Part shown: one piece after another, positions 4,650 through 56,835 of the stretch
How positions within the stretch are numbered: position 1 is the stretch's first letter
Layout: each line of letters starts with the position of its first letter
Origin: a virus
Reading direction: 5' to 3' (one strand)
DNA: 64,000 nt
IMG/VR virus record: IMGVR_UViG_3300043122_000207
Location: 1-64,000 of that record
Notes under the pieces: generated by a model
Database searches by the model: none
Seen by the model: only the letters and a program-made list of their open reading frames with translations
What the model was told of the DNA's origin: nothing
Translations under genes and position numbers: made by a program

Positions 4650-5054
4650 TTATTTTTGATTTACATTAAGTTGTGCTATAATACTCATTGTGGTGACATT
4701 ATCAAAGTCGCCGCTGACTAATGTAATTCTTAACTTATCGTTTACGATATTAAAATTGGTCGGAAATTCTTTATGTTCTTCACCAGTCTGTAAATCAAAA
4801 CTATCCAAAATAACCCAATCATCTGTGTTAGATAATTTCTCTAAATTGATTATTAGGTTAGATTGATTGTCTGACTGGCTACCAATAGATATCAATAGAT
4901 TGTTTATTGTTCCTTCATACGGAACTTTAATTTCTGTGAATGTTTGGGGACCTTGTTTTAAATTTTCCCCCAACATAAATACTATATCTTTGGTTTCACT
5001 TTTGTTGGGGTTTTTATTAAGTTTAGACCACCCATTAGCAAATCCATTAGGCAT
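4650..5054 (-). CDS. Small structural protein, single copy of domain duplicated at C-terminus of 5591..7594
   Basis: DIVFMLG..L.QGPQ..TEI.VPY...W.ILD.F.L...RI.LVSGD..NV..M pattern shared. Confidence 0.65.
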   Translation of the reverse strand: MPNGFANGWSKLNKNPNKSETKDIVFMLGENLKQGPQTFTEIKVPYEGTINNLLISIGSQSDNQSNLIINLEKLSNTDDWVILDSFDLQTGEEHKEFPTNFNIVNDKLRITLVSGDFDNVTTMSIIAQLNVNQK

Positions 5055-5061
5055 TTATAAT

Positions 5062-5571
5062 CTACCCCCTAACCACAAGTCTATAAGGACCACTAGCTGT
5101 GATATTAAAAGAAGAGAAATCTTCAAATAAATCAGAGAAACTCTCTCCAGTATCAACTTTAATGCTGATATCATTGACACTCATGGTTAAAGATTGATCA
5201 CCATCATTGATTATTGAAATTGATTTTCCTATCTTTTGTAGAGTGTACGATTTATTTCCTGTGTGTTCATCAGCCAAAATAACCTTTGGGTTGTTTATTT
5301 CAGTCTGCACATCAGGGATTGATACATTTATACTATCTTCACCAGATGCATAAAGAAACCTTTTGTTTATAAAGAAATTCTTTTCTGGATTATAGCAAAA
5401 GGTTTTAGCTTTAATATCTGCTGGTATTGTCAAACCATTGTATATATTAAATGAATCTTTATCGGGTAATTTTATAGTACCATCTATTAATATATCACCA
5501 TCTACTTCTGTTGCTGTTGAGCAAATTCTGATTATAACGTCTGAGCCTTTTTCTGTTATGATACTAGCCAT
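5062..5571 (-). CDS. Hypothetical protein (structural cluster)
   Basis: 169-aa ORF with GGAGG RBS in minus-strand operon. Confidence 0.6.
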   Translation of the reverse strand: MASIITEKGSDVIIRICSTATEVDGDILIDGTIKLPDKDSFNIYNGLTIPADIKAKTFCYNPEKNFFINKRFLYASGEDSINVSIPDVQTEINNPKVILADEHTGNKSYTLQKIGKSISIINDGDQSLTMSVNDISIKVDTGESFSDLFEDFSSFNITASGPYRLVVRG

Positions 5572-25930: not shown

Positions 25931-25976
25931 TAACTAAATAACTAAAAGGGAGAGTTATATACTCTCTCTTTTTTTG

Positions 25977-26064
25977 TTTTTATAATCAAATCCTACTAAT
26001 TTTTTTATAATCAAAATCTTTCTTAAAATTTTTTATAATCAAAATATTTTTTATAATCAAAATC
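25977..26064. repeat. Four direct repeats TTTTTATAATCAAA(A)T(C)
   Basis: Copies at ~25977, 26002, 26030, 26048 in the intergenic region after a terminator (25946-25975) and before the recombinase-like gene. Confidence 0.9.
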
Positions 26065-26196: not shown

Positions 26197-26763
26197 ATGA
26201 GTGGTATATTAAATAACTTACCTTTAGTATTGGATGATTATCAGATTGAAGACTTATTAGAGCAGGCTAATATGGAATGCTTTACAGGTTATAGAAATTA
26301 CTGTATATTAAGGTTAATGGTTTTTAATGGATTAACTTCAACAGAAGTTGCCAGATTAAGATGGGAAGATGTTAAATTATATGAAGGGGATTGTTATATA
26401 AGAGATAATGATGACCCTAGAGATTCAAGAAGGATATTATTAGATTTTGAAACTTTAGAACACCTAAGGGATTTAAAAAGAATTCAGGCTATAGAGGTTC
26501 AGCCACATAGTCATATATTTACTACTAAAAAAAATAAACCAGTATTAGCAGTATATATCGCACATATGGTTAAACGCTATGCAAGACGTGCTTATCTACC
26601 AGAGGAGGTTAATCCATCTACACTGCGTCAGACCTTTGGTAAAAACTTATATAAAAAAACTAGAGATATTGAGGAAGTAAGAGAGCATATGGGTTATACC
26701 AAAAAAACGACCTTAAGTAAGTTTAAGTATTTAGCTGATGAGGATATAGTAACTAACTATTAA
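26197..26763 (+). CDS. Tyrosine recombinase-fold protein with degenerate active site
   Basis: RNYCILRLM..NGLTSTEVARLRWEDV / PSTLRQTFG / VREHMGY..TTLSKFKY align to XerC/FimB boxes but catalytic residues are substituted. Confidence 0.8.
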   Translation: MSGILNNLPLVLDDYQIEDLLEQANMECFTGYRNYCILRLMVFNGLTSTEVARLRWEDVKLYEGDCYIRDNDDPRDSRRILLDFETLEHLRDLKRIQAIEVQPHSHIFTTKKNKPVLAVYIAHMVKRYARRAYLPEEVNPSTLRQTFGKNLYKKTRDIEEVREHMGYTKKTTLSKFKYLADEDIVTNY

Positions 26764-26778
26764 AAGAGGTGAATTAAA

Positions 26779-27156
26779 ATGACATTTATGGAGACCTTAA
26801 GGGTTTTAAAAAGAGGAGAACTTGTAATAGATGATGAGGATATGGGTGATGTTGAATCTATTTATATAAACTATTATGGTGATAAATATGCTAAAAGAGT
26901 TTATAAAAATACAGAAGTAATTAAAGTAGAAATAGGTTTTGATGATTTAAAAACTAATCTAATAGATTATATGAGATGGCTTGAGGATAATTTATGTGTT
27001 GAAACATCTATAGAGTATTTAAATAATAGATTAAGGTATAACTTCCCATTATCTTTAAAGATGGTTTCTATCTATAGTGTATGTATAGAAGGTTCACCAG
27101 ATATGATAAAAGAATTTAAAAAAGGGTTATTATTGGTAGGCTGTAAGATAAATTAA
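26779..27156 (+). CDS. Hypothetical protein
   Basis: 125 aa, GAGGTG RBS. Confidence 0.6.
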   Translation: MTFMETLRVLKRGELVIDDEDMGDVESIYINYYGDKYAKRVYKNTEVIKVEIGFDDLKTNLIDYMRWLEDNLCVETSIEYLNNRLRYNFPLSLKMVSIYSVCIEGSPDMIKEFKKGLLLVGCKIN

Positions 27157-27173
27157 TTAGGGGGTAAATACTT

Positions 27174-27827
27174 ATGAATATTGATATGATAAAAGAACTT
27201 TATAAAAATAAAATAACTTCTGATTTGAATTTAGAAATAAATGATTTAGCTATTTATTCAACCAAGGATAGATTAAGACAAAGATCAGCAAAAGAGGAAA
27301 AGGTTTTTAATGTGGGCCCTTATAAAACATGTGACTTTATGGTTGAGGTTAAATACGGGTTACCTTATCTAATAGAAGGAAAAGTAACCTTCAGTTCAGT
27401 TGAAAGTGAATTAATTAAAAGGGATAAAAAATTAAATGAACTTTTAAAAGATTATGATTTTAAATTGACCTCAAATGCTATGGCTGTTGATAGGTTTGAT
27501 CCAGAAAGAAGTGATTTTTCTTTTACTATTAAGGAATTTTATAAGTTTGATAAAAATAAGAATAAAACTGTATCTTTTTCTAAAGTATTAAAAGAAGTTA
27601 AAGCTGGTAAGAAAATAGCTAGAAAAGGTTGGAATGGTAATGGGATGTTTGTTTATTATGTTGGTGAAGATAAATATAAAGCCAAAACTAAAGCAGCTAA
27701 AAAGACCTTTGGTAAGTGTGTACCATATCTTCCTTATCTGGCTTTAAAGACTGTAGATGATAATGTAGTACCCTGGACAATAAGCCAAACAGATGTCCTT
27801 GCAGAAGACTGGTATATAATTGATTAA
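27174..27827 (+). CDS. tad2: Unknown N-terminal domain fused to Tad2/DUF2829 (anti-Thoeris sponge-like) domain
   Basis: C-terminal FSKVLKEVKAGKKIARKGWNGNGMFVY...PYL.LKTVD..VVPWTISQTDVLAEDW is the DUF2829 signature. Confidence 0.75.
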   Translation: MNIDMIKELYKNKITSDLNLEINDLAIYSTKDRLRQRSAKEEKVFNVGPYKTCDFMVEVKYGLPYLIEGKVTFSSVESELIKRDKKLNELLKDYDFKLTSNAMAVDRFDPERSDFSFTIKEFYKFDKNKNKTVSFSKVLKEVKAGKKIARKGWNGNGMFVYYVGEDKYKAKTKAAKKTFGKCVPYLPYLALKTVDDNVVPWTISQTDVLAEDWYIID

Positions 27828-27845
27828 AGTAGGAGGTAGTACAGG

Positions 27846-28235
27846 TTGGATAAAATTGCGATAAATAACTTTTTAAATACAGCTAATGATATACTAAAAG
27901 ACATGGGTTATGTGGATGAATTGGAGTTTAACTATTTAGATGGTGAATATATATTAAAACTTATTATGTTAAGTGATTCTCCTGTTATGTTAGGTAAACA
28001 TTTGATATCTTTAAAAGATAATAAGATAAAGGTAAATAAATCAATACATGATAAGTTATTTTTGATATCTAAACTTAAAGATGTATTGGATCAATTCAAA
28101 AAAGATTTTAAAGGTAATGATTTAAAAGTATACCATAATAGAGTTATGAGAAGAGAATATGAAGCTCGCGATAGTATGATAGATGGTAGAGATTTTACTG
28201 TTATAACTAAAAATTACTTATTAGGGGATGATTAA
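27846..28235 (+). CDS. Hypothetical protein
   Basis: 129 aa, TTG start with AGGAGG RBS. Confidence 0.55.
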   Translation: MDKIAINNFLNTANDILKDMGYVDELEFNYLDGEYILKLIMLSDSPVMLGKHLISLKDNKIKVNKSIHDKLFLISKLKDVLDQFKKDFKGNDLKVYHNRVMRREYEARDSMIDGRDFTVITKNYLLGDD

Positions 28236-28985
28236 ATGTTTTATGATATAGACGATAATTTAATTCTAAAGAAAAAAGAATATACTTCAATTAGACTAAA
28301 AAACAATAATGAAGATGATAAATCAAATAGTAAGTTAAACGATATTTCTATATTTATCCCGAATATTAATATAAAAGATTTGGATGTTATATTAAAGAAA
28401 TTTAAGACATCTGAATCTACAGATAAAGAATATATAGAAGATTTCACATTGACCCTTTTAGATGGGTATCAAGAAGAAATAAAGACCTATAATATAAAAC
28501 TGGATGATAAAGAAAATAAAGTCTTATTAGAGAATGTAAACTTTAAACAAAATGAAATTTATATTATTAAAATTGAATTTGATTTTTCAAATATCGAGGG
28601 GTTTATATTTGGAGAGTGGTTATACAATATAACATTTAATGTACCTGAGAGAAAGGATGTTTCTAAAGGTGATAATATGGGTGCTGATGAGTTTCTAGAA
28701 CATGTTTCTGAAATATTAAAAGAAGATGGTGTTTCATTTTCTAAAGCTTTAAAGGCTTGTAAGAGTGGAAAAAGAATCCAAAGAAAAGGTTGGAATGGAA
28801 AGGGTATGTTTGTGTATTATGTAGGAGAAGATTCTTACCCAGCTAAAACTAAAGCAGCTAAAAATACCTTTAAAGATAATGTACCTTATCTACCATATCT
28901 AGCTTTAAAGACTGTAGATGAAAAGGTAGTACCCTGGACTATATCCCAAACAGATGCTCTAGCAGAAGACTGGGTTATACTGTAA
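28236..28985 (+). CDS. tad2: Different N-terminal domain fused to second Tad2/DUF2829 domain
   Basis: FSKALKACKSGKRIQRKGWNGKGMFVY...PYL.LKTVDEKVVPWTISQTDALAEDW; internal AAGGTG + ATG at 28677. Confidence 0.75.
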   Translation: MFYDIDDNLILKKKEYTSIRLKNNNEDDKSNSKLNDISIFIPNINIKDLDVILKKFKTSESTDKEYIEDFTLTLLDGYQEEIKTYNIKLDDKENKVLLENVNFKQNEIYIIKIEFDFSNIEGFIFGEWLYNITFNVPERKDVSKGDNMGADEFLEHVSEILKEDGVSFSKALKACKSGKRIQRKGWNGKGMFVYYVGEDSYPAKTKAAKNTFKDNVPYLPYLALKTVDEKVVPWTISQTDALAEDWVIL

Positions 28986-29284
28986 TGAAAAAGATAATAT
29001 TACTAATAGTATTGACGGTCATATTTAGTACTAGTGTATATGCAGTAGATATAAATATTACCTATCCAAAAGAGTATGAAATAATAGATGTGGAATTAAT
29101 AGATCAAAGTAAGATTAAATGGGATATGCTTATTAAAGCTAAAGATGATAATGAGTTTATTATAATACCAATTGAATTAAATTTTAAAGCAAGTCCATTT
29201 GGTATATTAGGTGATAGGGGTCCAGATAAAATTACATTTTCTAAAGGTGATGTTTACAATCCATATATATCCTATAGTGATTAA
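28985..29284 (+). CDS. Exported protein with signal peptide
   Basis: MKKIILLIVLTVIFSTSVYA; TAATG coupling to upstream gene. Confidence 0.65.
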   Translation: MKKIILLIVLTVIFSTSVYAVDINITYPKEYEIIDVELIDQSKIKWDMLIKAKDDNEFIIIPIELNFKASPFGILGDRGPDKITFSKGDVYNPYISYSD

Positions 29285-29305
29285 GACAATATAAGGGGGG
29301 CACCA

Positions 29306-29821
29306 ATGAGTTTATTTATTAAAGATAGATTAGATTATTTAACTAAAAAAGAAAATGAGATCAGTAAAGAAAAGAAATTGGAATCAAAAAAGCTATTGAT
29401 TAAAAACTTGTGTGATAAACCTGATACTATGTTTTATAACCTTGCTTTATCTGCAGTACTTAATTCTGGTAAGTTTAAAGATAAGTATATAAGGCGAATT
29501 GTAAAGATTGGGATATTACAGGTTTCAGAAGGTAAAAGAGTATTTAAAAGAAATGATTTATCTTTTGATAATATGTGTAACCTTAAAGAAGAATTAGAAT
29601 ATATTAAACCTATTAGTGTTCATACAAAAAAAGAAATGACTTTATATATAAAAAAAGACTTTGAAATAAATGAACACATCACAACATTGGAATCAAAGTA
29701 TCCTGATCTTAGTAGAGAAACTATAGCACACGAAATAAATAAATTATTAATTAAGGTGCCTATTGATATTATATCAGGTTCTCTTAAATTATCATTTAGA
29801 TTATTAGAATCATATATTTAA
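29306..29821 (+). CDS. Hypothetical protein
   Basis: 171-aa ORF followed by hairpin gctgag...ctcagc. Confidence 0.55.
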   Translation: MSLFIKDRLDYLTKKENEISKEKKLESKKLLIKNLCDKPDTMFYNLALSAVLNSGKFKDKYIRRIVKIGILQVSEGKRVFKRNDLSFDNMCNLKEELEYIKPISVHTKKEMTLYIKKDFEINEHITTLESKYPDLSRETIAHEINKLLIKVPIDIISGSLKLSFRLLESYI

Positions 29822-29873
29822 AATATTAAGCTGAGGGTTTAAATACTCTCAGCTATCACTAACTGTTTTATAA

Positions 29874-29884
29874 TTATATATTAT
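29874..29884 (+). promoter_or_regulatory. TTATATATTAT motif, putative early phage promoter
   Basis: Recurrent 11-mer followed by GTGAAAG; upstream of 29996. Confidence 0.6.
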
Positions 29885-29995
29885 AAAAGTGAAAGAAGAA
29901 TAAATGTTATTACTTATTAATCCGCCCTCCCAAAGAGGAGATAATACTACGGGGCGAACCAAGTCATGGGTGCTACACTTTAGGAGGTGTTTTAA

Positions 29996-30649
29996 ATGAC
30001 TAAAATTAATATTGAAGATGTAAAGGTAAACGGTGGAGCTTACTTAGTAGAGGATACAATGGTATGGTCAGCAGGATGGGATGAGAAGTATTACAAGAAG
30101 AATATTAAATTCTTTGATTTACTTATTAAAGCCGAATATGATGAACTTATTCTGGCAGTGGATATGGAAAACACCCATATCTATTATGAACTGGTTGTCA
30201 TAAGAAAAGATGATAAAGACTTAGTAGTACCTCTACCATTAGTAATGGAGACATTACACTTTGGTGGGGGGTATGAAGATTGGGATGAGTTTATCAGTGA
30301 TTCTGCCATAGTTTGGTTGAATGAAGATATTGATGAAGGTGTTGATCACAGAACCTTTAGTAAAGTGATGACAAGAAAGAATTATTATCTTGATAGAGAG
30401 TATAAAGATAATAAAAAGAAGATAGATGTTATAGCTGAACTTCTAGAAGAAGAATGTATAGAGCTCCCCAAAAGTTATAATACAGAAGGAGAACTATTTA
30501 ATATTATAACTTTCCATTTCGATAATGATGATAATTGGGATGGTGAAATAACAATTTCAACTAAGATGGATGAAGGTTATGGTGATAAAATTTACACACA
30601 CCATTTAACTTTTGAAGAATTAGTCGAGATAATAGAGGAAGCTTATTAA
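29996..30649 (+). CDS. Hypothetical acidic protein
   Basis: 217 aa, AGGAGGTG RBS, followed by ggggt...acccc + T-run terminator. Confidence 0.65.
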   Translation: MTKINIEDVKVNGGAYLVEDTMVWSAGWDEKYYKKNIKFFDLLIKAEYDELILAVDMENTHIYYELVVIRKDDKDLVVPLPLVMETLHFGGGYEDWDEFISDSAIVWLNEDIDEGVDHRTFSKVMTRKNYYLDREYKDNKKKIDVIAELLEEECIELPKSYNTEGELFNIITFHFDNDDNWDGEITISTKMDEGYGDKIYTHHLTFEELVEIIEEAY

Positions 30650-30701
30650 ATAATCAGGGGTGTAAAAACCCCTCTTTATTTTTTTAAAAAGGAGAGATAA
30701 A

Positions 30702-54012: not shown

Positions 54013-56835
54013 GTGAATAAAGTGAGCAACGAAAATATGTTACTTCTTAATAACTATTTTGATAGAAATAAAAATAGACACCATATATTAATGAAGAATG
54101 TAGATACTGAGGAAAAGAAAGTTTATAAAATAAATAACCCAACTATACCTATATATAAAGTTAAAGATGATGTTGAGGTGCCAGATTATTTTATGGAGTA
54201 TCGTGATATAGAAGACCTTGAAAAACATGATGTCTCATATAGATGGAGAGAATGGGACCTTGCAAGATTAATAGGTTATGATGGTTTTACAAATGATGTA
54301 AGAAAAAAGCATATTAAAAAGGAGCAGATTTATTTAGATAAAAGATTATTCGGAGCTGATGTTAGATTAACAGATAGAACTATTATGGACTATCTAGATT
54401 CAATGGGTAAAGAAGATAAAGAAGGTAATATAACTTATCCTGATGAACCACCAATTAAAAATTTACACATAGGTTTTTTTGACCTTGAGTGGGATATTAG
54501 AATAGATAGTGATGATGAAGCTGATTACCCTATATACCTTATGACGTATTTTGATTCTAAAGAAAATGTTTGTCACACTTTTTATCTTGAAGATAAAAAT
54601 TATAAATACCAAGATAAACTTCTTAAAGATAAGGGTCATAAAAAATTTATCAAGGAATTGAAAAAAGAACTCGAAGAAGATTTTAGTAAACTATCCTTAA
54701 AAAATGCTAAGGAAGAACAGCAGGTAAAAGAGACAATATTCAAAAGATTAGATAATATTAAATATGAGCTTAAATCTTACAGCAGTGAACAGAGAATGAT
54801 TCGTGATTTTTATAAAATGATAATCAGAGATTATATGCCTGATTTTCTATATGCATATAACACCAGTGCAGATATAGGACAAACTCTAAACCGTTGTGAT
54901 AAATTAAATATCAAACCATCTAGCATTTTCTGCCACCCTGATGTCGGAGATTATGTTGACTTTAGAATTAGAGATAACACCTTCCCACCAGAGGATAGAA
55001 AGCATAACTATGAATGTGCATCTTATACCAAGATAATGGATATGTTTATAACCTATCATGCTATAAGGGGTGCATCATCTTTTACAAGTTATAAGTTAGA
55101 TACTGTTGCTAAAGATAATCTTGGTGTTGGTAAACTAGACTATTCTCATATCTGTGACCACATTGGTGATTTACCTTATAGAGATTTTTATACCACAACT
55201 AAATACAACATTCGTGATGTTTTGGTTATGCCATTTATAGAGGATGTTACACAAGATACTAAGACAATGGTATCTAAACGGTTTACAACAAGAACAGAAT
55301 ACGATCAGCTTTTTACTTCTATGGCTCAAGTTATGAATGCTTTTTTCCATATGGGAGAAAGAAATGGTCAGATACTCTCTAATGAAGTTAATAAACTTCT
55401 TTTAAAGTTGTCCGATAAACAGGTAGAGATCCTAAAGGAAGAAGACAGAGTAACCTATGATATTATTATGTCTATTAAAAATGGTGATAGAATCCAGGGT
55501 GGTTTATGTACTGACCCAAATAAAGTTACAAGAAAAGGGATAAAACTTTTACCACTATTAAATAATAAGAAAGTATTTGAAACAGTAATTGATGCAGATG
55601 CATCTTCTATGTATCCTAATAATTTGATATCCCACAATATAACTAAGACAACTTTGGTTGGTAAGTTAATATGGATAGATGAATTTCATGACTTAGTTTA
55701 TAAAGAAACTAAAACAGTAAATGGTAGGTTGATAATAAGTAGGGATGATTGGGCAGCTATTAAAAAGATGCGTTCTAAATCAAATAATAATAAGTTCCAA
55801 AGAAATAAGTTTCTTAAAATGTATAGGGCTATCAAATATTTTGATTATAAAGAACTTGCTAATAAGTCTATCGATATAGATATCATGAGTGTACTTGAAG
55901 ATTACGGTTTTAAAGAAGAAAAAGAGTATATGCCAAATTTAAGAAAGATATTCAAATACTTTAATGGTTCTATGATAGATAAGGAAGAGTTTGAAAAAGA
56001 TTTCCCAGATAAAGATAAAAAGGACTTAAAACACACTATAGAAATAATCCAAATCTATATTAAAAACATCACATCAAGAATAGGTGAAAGGGCTATCATT
56101 TCTTTAATCCAAAGAAACATTATAGAAATAGGAGAGATATTTTTTAATCTTCCGAATCTAACTGATTTAGATTTTATTTTAAATAATATATCTCAAAAGG
56201 AAGTTAGTCTGGTTGATTCACATGATGACTATGAAGTAAAAATAGTTAAAAACAAATTAAGACCATTACTTTCTATTTTGTCTCAGCTTGATTCATCTAT
56301 GTTAAATGATAAAGATTTAGATACCGGATTATATAAAACAAACGGTATGTTTTATATCGGGGATAAAAAGAGAAATTATATCAGATATACTGGCACTGTT
56401 ATAGAATACTTTCTTGAAAGTGGGAAAAATCTAACAGATGTCTTCGAAATAGATGAACCAATATATACTGATAGAAGAGGTAACGTTGCAAATTACATTT
56501 ATGAAGAACAAGTCAAAGTTAAAGAGATACCAGATATTAATGGTTCAGTCATTTTCAGTGGTGAAGTTGATGAAGAAAATGTTCGTAAATTGAAGTTAAC
56601 AGATAGGTTATCTAGGAGGTTAGACTTTAAAACTAAAAGTGGAGAAATAATAACCATTAATTTAAACCCTAGAATGGTTCCCTGTATAAGGGAGATAGAG
56701 TCATTACATGTTAAGATATGTAAAACAGAACATGATAGTATTTATGATGTGATAATAAGATCTGAAATACCAATAGAAAAACCACACGAAGATAAATTTA
56801 TATATAACCAATACATGAAAATACTAAATTACTAA
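54013..56835 (+). CDS. polB: Family B DNA polymerase, N-terminal part (exonuclease + palm motif A) of a split enzyme
   Basis: ExoI FFDLEWDI, ExoII YAYN, ExoIII YNIRDV, IQGG, DADASSMYP; no KxxxNSxYG or YGDTDS seen. Confidence 0.85.
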   Translation: MNKVSNENMLLLNNYFDRNKNRHHILMKNVDTEEKKVYKINNPTIPIYKVKDDVEVPDYFMEYRDIEDLEKHDVSYRWREWDLARLIGYDGFTNDVRKKHIKKEQIYLDKRLFGADVRLTDRTIMDYLDSMGKEDKEGNITYPDEPPIKNLHIGFFDLEWDIRIDSDDEADYPIYLMTYFDSKENVCHTFYLEDKNYKYQDKLLKDKGHKKFIKELKKELEEDFSKLSLKNAKEEQQVKETIFKRLDNIKYELKSYSSEQRMIRDFYKMIIRDYMPDFLYAYNTSADIGQTLNRCDKLNIKPSSIFCHPDVGDYVDFRIRDNTFPPEDRKHNYECASYTKIMDMFITYHAIRGASSFTSYKLDTVAKDNLGVGKLDYSHICDHIGDLPYRDFYTTTKYNIRDVLVMPFIEDVTQDTKTMVSKRFTTRTEYDQLFTSMAQVMNAFFHMGERNGQILSNEVNKLLLKLSDKQVEILKEEDRVTYDIIMSIKNGDRIQGGLCTDPNKVTRKGIKLLPLLNNKKVFETVIDADASSMYPNNLISHNITKTTLVGKLIWIDEFHDLVYKETKTVNGRLIISRDDWAAIKKMRSKSNNNKFQRNKFLKMYRAIKYFDYKELANKSIDIDIMSVLEDYGFKEEKEYMPNLRKIFKYFNGSMIDKEEFEKDFPDKDKKDLKHTIEIIQIYIKNITSRIGERAIISLIQRNIIEIGEIFFNLPNLTDLDFILNNISQKEVSLVDSHDDYEVKIVKNKLRPLLSILSQLDSSMLNDKDLDTGLYKTNGMFYIGDKKRNYIRYTGTVIEYFLESGKNLTDVFEIDEPIYTDRRGNVANYIYEEQVKVKEIPDINGSVIFSGEVDEENVRKLKLTDRLSRRLDFKTKSGEIITINLNPRMVPCIREIESLHVKICKTEHDSIYDVIIRSEIPIEKPHEDKFIYNQYMKILNY

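Follow-up and report, generated by a model that had tools for sequence, protein, structure and literature searches.

Two fusion genes in a packed phage locus

Sponges of the Tad2 family are a main route by which phages silence signalling-based immunity (Thoeris, Pycsar and some cyclic oligonucleotide-based anti-phage signalling systems, CBASS). Here we describe two genes, A and C, each of which ends in a Tad2-like domain behind a different N-terminal domain (N-domain), in the virus record IMGVR_UViG_3300043122_000207. The DNA that we analysed, referred to below as the window, is the 64-kb stretch at the start of this 194.6-kb IMG/VR record, which is rated complete; its G+C content is ~30% and it contains phage structural, helicase and DNA-polymerase genes. 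Gene A (27174-27827, plus strand) encodes 217 amino acids (aa), comprising an orphan N-domain and the C-terminal Tad2-like domain. Gene C (28236-28985, plus strand) is the larger of the two at 249 aa and comprises an orphan N-domain predicted to be a β-sandwich, a linker and the C-terminal Tad2-like domain. They are separated by gene B (27846-28235, plus strand), a conserved orphan of 129 aa with a TTG start after AGGAGGT. All three genes sit within a tightly packed unit of eight genes (26197-30649).

The fusions A and C are real genes. Both are uninterrupted open reading frames, found exactly where an earlier note, made by a model from the DNA letters alone, had placed them, and in each case the ATG is preceded by a G-rich Shine-Dalgarno stretch. 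The A-B-C order was assembled independently in eight contigs from several samples, so the arrangement is not an assembly artefact.

BLASTP aligned residues 110-216 of A to residues 137-249 of C (E 5e-46), with true similarity beginning at the Tad2 domain, around residue 133 of A and residue 166 of C. The two Tad2 domains share 76-79% identity in protein and 76.9% in DNA over 255 nucleotides (nt), where identical runs reach at most 20 nt; by codon position, identity amounts to 87, 85 and 62% at positions 1, 2 and 3, respectively. The C-termini are thus homologous, as the earlier note had noticed, but its wording that they are near-identical is wrong, given 77% DNA identity and a synonymous distance (dS) of ~0.68. 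The N-terminal parts had been called unrelated, and they are: BLASTP detected no similarity between them, and their predicted folds differ (an α/β sandwich in A and a β-sandwich in C).

Family, fold and pocket of the C-terminal domains

The Tad2 assignment of both C-terminal domains is secure. Searched with the profile PF11195 (Tad2-like/DUF2829; curated cut-off of 25 bits), the domain of gene A (aa 133-217; 27570-27824, plus strand) scored 89.2 bits (E 2.5e-25, residues 134-216) and that of gene C (aa 166-249; 28731-28982, plus strand) scored 87.7 bits (E 7.3e-25, residues 167-248), with both alignments covering positions 2-73 of the 73 in the profile. The hidden Markov model comparison that had been proposed as a check thus confirmed the family of both C-termini, and the same profile search of the entire 194.6-kb genome found copies in A and C only.

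Among solved structures, the closest relative is ModTad2 (also MoTad2), from a Myroides odoratus prophage (9eib, and the Tad2 entry 8v3e), which both domains match without gaps at ~55% identity and E-values of ~1e-27 to 1e-29. With phmmer, the match to 9eib had an E-value of 7e-29 for the gene A domain and 2e-27 for the gene C domain. HgmTad2/AcrIIA7 (8kbi), SptTad2 (8wjd) and SPO1 Tad2 (gp34.65; 8sme) were also matched by both domains, after ModTad2 and at lower identity; they have in common with A and C the family and the pocket motif W-N-G ... W..S.TD.

The AlphaFold2 (AF2) models, with a predicted local distance difference test (pLDDT) score of 79.8 for gene A and 72.7 for gene C, reach pLDDT >90 in the Tad2 domains. 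Both show the Tad2 fold: a helix at the N-terminus, an antiparallel sheet and loops that contain short helices. Superposition on 9eib using VIA gave Z 12.9 for A and 12.5 for C, with a root-mean-square deviation (rmsd) of 2.4-2.6 over 85-86 residues; the corresponding values on 8kbi were Z 11.1 and 10.9.

The pocket of HgmTad2 for glycocyclic ADP-ribose (gcADPR) was defined by mutagenesis as W21, N22, G23, W87, S90, T92 and D93 (10.1101/2023.11.15.567273). In the HMMER alignment, A and C both carry all seven of these residues. With family, fold and pocket residues all intact, both C-termini are true Tad2-like domains, as had been supposed.

HgmTad2 and SptTad2 carry an insertion of 35-41 residues, between β2 and β5, that forms a pocket for cyclic dinucleotides. 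This HgmTad2-type insertion is absent from the domains of A and C in the alignments to 8kbi, 9kzr and 8wjd, which needed 12-18 extra target residues in that region. A role against cyclic GMP-AMP (cGAMP) and CBASS by that route is therefore unlikely, and the earlier suggestion of cyclic-dinucleotide binding is weakened accordingly. The loop lengths of both domains instead equal those of ModTad2, including the region after β2 that forms the second pocket of that protein, which binds cyclic UMP (cUMP) and cyclic CMP (cCMP) (10.1101/2025.08.24.671296).

The matches of A and C to the AcrIIA7 entries 9kzr and 8kbi (E 1e-13 to 6e-15) also bear on whether the two proteins could be AcrIIA7-like anti-CRISPRs that inhibit Cas9. 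We consider this highly improbable: Li et al. failed to reproduce Cas9 inhibition by HgmTad2/AcrIIA7 or by other Tad2 homologues (10.1101/2023.11.15.567273), and the closest solved relatives of the A and C domains are Thoeris sponges.

Duplication within the lineage and selection

An exhaustive HMMER search with the Tad2 domain of gene A returned 4,572 relatives, the two best of which were P0005 (214 aa) and gene C itself. Gene A has a full-length orthologue in P0005, to which it is 62% identical with the N-domain included. The orthologue of gene C, P0004 (264 aa), is 94% identical in the Tad2 domain and 80% identical in the linker. We built a maximum-likelihood tree from four Tad2 domains belonging to this phage group (those of A, C and their orthologues) and 54 other representatives. 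The four domains formed a clade with 100/100 support on a long stem; within it, A and its orthologue made up a sub-clade (97/96) with branch lengths of 0.23-0.30, compared with near-zero branches (~0) for the C type. According to the 100/100 clade, the duplication took place within this phage lineage and predates the divergence of its known relatives, which upholds the claim that the two domains arose by duplication. Recent gene conversion between A and C was also considered and is unsupported by the tree, in which A joins its orthologue. Synonymous distances, ~0.68 between A and C and 0.5-1.3 between orthologues, are too noisy for a finer dating of this event.

Ratios of nonsynonymous to synonymous substitution rates (dN/dS) against the orthologues were 0.34 for the N-domain and 0.22 for the Tad2 domain of gene A, and 0.18, 0.17 and 0.064 for the N-domain, linker and Tad2 domain of gene C, respectively; between A and C the ratio was 0.27. 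With values of 0.06-0.34 for every domain, all parts of both genes are under purifying selection. Constraint is strongest on the Tad2 domain of gene C, and the A copy evolves faster.

This difference in rate could indicate redundant paralogues in turnover, with A a relaxed duplicate heading for loss or for a slightly shifted specificity, and with the N-domains being simply the sequences behind which the copied module happened to land. Such a scenario would draw on the faster A-type Tad2 domain (dN/dS 0.22 vs 0.064; branches 0.23-0.30 vs ~0) and on the natural relatives without A or without C that are described below. It nevertheless seems very unlikely, as gene A is intact, its dN/dS is well below 1 in both domains, it is kept together with its N-domain in a relative at a dS of ~0.95, and all pocket residues are retained in its Tad2 domain.

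The N-terminal domains and the linker of gene C

The N-domain of gene A (aa 1-128; 27174-27557, plus strand) is predicted to form a two-layer sandwich of α-β-β-α-β-β topology. In the AF2 model, this sandwich spans residues 1-126 and is joined to the Tad2 domain by a very short linker. Comparison with the PDB using VIA, a tool that gives Z values under ~8 as background, returned tail terminator/completion proteins (lambda gpU-like), nitroreductases and S6 as the best matches (Z 6-7.7). Many neck and terminator chains reached Z 5.8-7.7 over 100-108 residues with an rmsd of 3.5-4.7, and nitroreductases and S6 did equally well.

The N-domain of gene C (aa 1-135; 28236-28640, plus strand) is predicted to be an all-β sandwich, with AF2 strands between residues 3 and 134. 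The PDB-wide VIA comparison matched it to generic sandwiches of the carbohydrate-binding-module-like or adhesin type with a best Z of 7.6, below the background of ~8, and many unrelated β-sandwiches also scored Z 6-7.4. Structure prediction of the N-domains, which had been recommended, thus provided two different folds but only generic PDB matches at Z <8.

Neither N-domain matched any Pfam or PHROG family, tblastn of both against 50,697 GenBank phage records returned nothing, and Foldseek searches of BFVD with both models found matches to the Tad2 domain only. The ESM Atlas gave no feature match for either, the A domain reaching only a template modelling (TM) score of ~0.5 to GHKL/ferredoxin-like models. 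When viral contigs were scanned with gene A, matches were again confined to the Tad2 domain, except for two contigs that reached back to residue 80. In a word-index search, the N-domain of gene C found a single homologue (P0004, 58% identity) and that of gene A found no match; its orthologue P0005 was recovered by the exhaustive HMMER search. Across these searches, both N-domains are lineage-restricted orphans, present in this phage group only.

The linker of gene C (aa 136-165; 28641-28730, plus strand) contains one predicted helix (residues 150-161), and pLDDT is <50 for residues 136-163. An in-frame ATG lies within it at 28677, with AAGGTG 5 nt upstream. The earlier note had read this as an internal start, in which case gene C would yield two products, the 249-aa fusion and a 102-aa near-stand-alone Tad2. 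The position of the ATG in a predicted flexible linker ahead of the Tad2 domain is favourable to this idea, and the orthologue retains both K-G-D-N-M and the G-rich stretch. However, the bases of AAGGTG belong to Lys-Gly-Asp codons and thus offer no independent support for an internal start, and the protein sequence explains their conservation; moreover, gene A has no equivalent site. We therefore regard a second product from gene C as doubtful: the motif and the ATG are indeed present, but the motif is largely dictated by the codons that it overlaps.

Locus types in related phages

The locus occurs in three forms. In the first (window, eight contigs), the gene order is 125 aa - A - B - C - 99 aa - 171 aa - 217 aa. 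The second form (L003-L006 and L024) has no gene A and reads 116 aa - 131 aa - B - C - 99 aa - 171 aa - 215 aa, and the third (L021 and L025), which lacks C and the 99-aa and 171-aa genes, reads 125 aa - A - B - 218 aa. At least one Tad2 gene was found in every locus seen, a count that refers to the loci only, further copies elsewhere in the genomes of the relatives being possible. Gene C and the 99-aa and 171-aa genes are present or absent together in the related phages and behave as one cassette. Overall, the Tad2 locus behaves as accessory genes do, which fits a counter-defence role without proving one.

In L003, an extra gene of 116 aa (4883-5233) stands between the integrase-like and 131-aa genes. 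The window has no such gene, so that this short region holds a second indel.

Gene B belongs to each of the three forms of the locus (75-77% identity; dN/dS 0.22-0.27). It matched no Pfam or PHROG family, tblastn against the 50,697 phage records returned nothing, and scans of metagenomes and viral contigs with an alignment of gene B found no further relatives. The suggestion that it may also act against host defences finds no support here: with no family match and no phage homologue, nothing marks gene B as such.

Extensions across the Tad2 family

The Tad2 proteins characterised in the studies consulted are stand-alone or nearly so. ModTad2 itself consists of 89 aa and stands alone, whereas the domains of A and C follow unrelated N-domains of 132 and 165 aa, respectively. 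We surveyed the architecture of the nearest Tad2 cluster representatives (n = 152), for some of which the metagenomic start calls are possibly too long. An N-terminal extension of at least 30 aa was found in 102 of the 152 and one of at least 100 aa in 32, C-terminal extensions were found in 23, and 28 were stand-alone. Such a fused architecture is therefore not unusual, and the fusions in A and C can hardly be taken as the sign of an anti-immune arsenal that the earlier note had seen in them.

A partner known to Pfam was present in 11 of the 84 clearly extended representatives, namely crAss001_48 (n = 6) or Phage_gp49_66 (n = 5), and these fusions to Tad2 have an architecture like that of A and C. 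The layout is likewise similar in N-extended Tad2-like proteins of phrog_872, phrog_1048 and phrog_30130, which combine a variable N-terminal part with a C-terminal Tad2 domain; the match of these profiles to A and C is confined to their Tad2 part. BFVD contains Tad2-like proteins from cultured phages that range from 102 to 270 aa in length, and a 216-aa protein of Pseudomonas phage PaBG and a 229-aa protein of Lactobacillus phage 521B are further extended examples with an A/C-like layout.

In a tblastn search for Tad2, 350 places were located in 339 phage records, ~3% of which had more than one. Two Tad2 copies in one genome are thus less common than fusion. For eight of the relatives (P0006, P0007, P0008, P0010, P0032, P0035, P0046 and P0085), the single-domain query matched two or three separate stretches. 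These relatives may carry several Tad2 domains in tandem on a single chain, which would offer a further means of multiplying the module.

A probable sponge mechanism and the role of the N-domains

By analogy with the solved Tad2 proteins, the C-terminal domain of A and that of C would each assemble into a homotetramer. The pockets between subunits would trap the ADP-ribose (ADPR)-derived signals that the TIR proteins of Thoeris produce (3'cADPR, His-ADPR or N7-cADPR), and with the signal trapped, the host effector would never be switched on. Because the loop lengths match those of ModTad2, a second pocket for cyclic mononucleotides, the signals of Pycsar, is possible in A and C as well. The ligands of ModTad2 (His-ADPR and cUMP/cCMP) are proven, whereas those of A and C we infer from the likeness; an ADPR-derived Thoeris signal is our best guess for the likeliest ligand. 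A single duplication in the lineage gave rise to the two Tad2 domains, each behind a different lineage-specific N-domain, for which an accessory role may be envisaged, either as a further binding activity or as an aid to oligomerisation or stability. Taken as a whole, and judged by analogy, A and C are probably two Tad2-type sponges that sequester Thoeris signals through a Tad2 tetramer.

Several points weigh against this interpretation. The ligand specificity of A and C cannot be read from their sequence. Of the sponge homologues that have been assayed, about one quarter inhibited none of seven systems (10.1101/2025.08.24.671296). The members characterised in the studies consulted are essentially stand-alone, and A and C carry N-domains of 130-165 aa, which bears on whether the tetramer can form. 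Finally, should A and C have the same primary pocket, sponge activity by itself would leave the retention of two copies unexplained.

Two kept copies with the same pocket would be accounted for if A and C were bifunctional inhibitors. Their N-domains would then be the main divergent effectors, each binding a different defence protein or small molecule, and the Tad2 domain would provide tetramerisation besides, or in place of, signal capture. The identical pocket residues of A and C, their wholly different N-domains and the purifying selection (dN/dS 0.18-0.34) are consistent with such an arrangement. So is the survey, in which extensions are usual (102 of 152) and mostly without a known family (a Pfam partner in 11 of 84). 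On the other hand, neither N-domain could be linked to a known anti-defence or ligand-binding family, structural comparison gave only generic hits (Z <8), both domains are confined to this small phage group, and relatives manage with A alone or with C alone. We consider bifunctional inhibition the main alternative to the sponge reading, though an unlikely one.

The same reserve applies to the proposal that both orphan N-domains are new counter-defence modules, each neutralising a different immune component on a shared Tad2 tetramer, which we put forward only tentatively as an unlikely case. If true, A and C would be two different bifunctional inhibitors, acting via binding of a protein or of a second signal, and the unannotated N-extensions across the Tad2 family would constitute a large untapped pool of anti-defence domains.

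With A and C taken as sponges for Thoeris signals, the counter-defence finding is solid and fairly ordinary: the locus adds two Tad2 genes and two orphan domains, a useful but unsurprising annotation. Its main value is as a test case for the function of N-extensions in Tad2 proteins. The proteins characterised in the studies consulted consist of little more than the domain itself, yet roughly two in three of the closest relatives have N-extensions, to which no function has been assigned. The locus provides a natural paired comparison in this respect, as A and C combine the same pocket residues with different N-domains, and sister phages keep one or the other.

Surroundings of the locus and source genome

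The eight-gene unit with A, B and C lies between two terminator-like hairpins, both on the plus strand. The first (25944-25972) terminates the preceding unit, and the second (30656-30673) stands at the end of the eight-gene unit. Within a gap of 250 nt, just after the first terminator and ahead of the Tad2-bearing unit, TTTTTATAATCAAA occurs in four exact copies (25977-26061) at spacings of 25, 28 and 18 nt. Its 12-nt core, TTTATAATCAAA, has just one further exact occurrence in the window. The repeats could be a promoter or operator array.

The first gene of the unit (26197-26763) encodes a protein of 188 aa that matches the catalytic domain of Phage_integrase only (E 2.8e-18). Ten neighbouring genes were scanned against Pfam and PHROG, and none except this integrase-like gene had a match; an anti-defence island around the Tad2 genes is unsupported, the neighbours being otherwise without a Pfam or PHROG family. 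Directly upstream of gene A lies an orphan of 125 aa (26779-27156) that is kept in all three locus types. The start of this protein, MTFMETLRVLKRGE...IYINYYGDKY, resembles the first helix and strand of Tad2. We considered whether it might be a degenerate Tad2, but BLASTP gave no significant similarity (E 8.4). Downstream of gene C (28985-29821), the 99-aa protein has a signal-peptide-like hydrophobic start (MKKIILLIVLTVIFSTSVYA) and is followed by the 171-aa orphan.

The DNA polymerase encoded at 54013-56835 has its nearest cultured relatives in the Fusobacterium phages JD-Fnp1, 4, 6 and 7, whose genomes measure 174-180 kb, at 37% identity over 58% of the polymerase length. Yersinia phage phiR1-37 and jumbo Staphylococcus phages are more distant relatives of the polymerase. 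These relationships hint at the phage group and perhaps at the host range.

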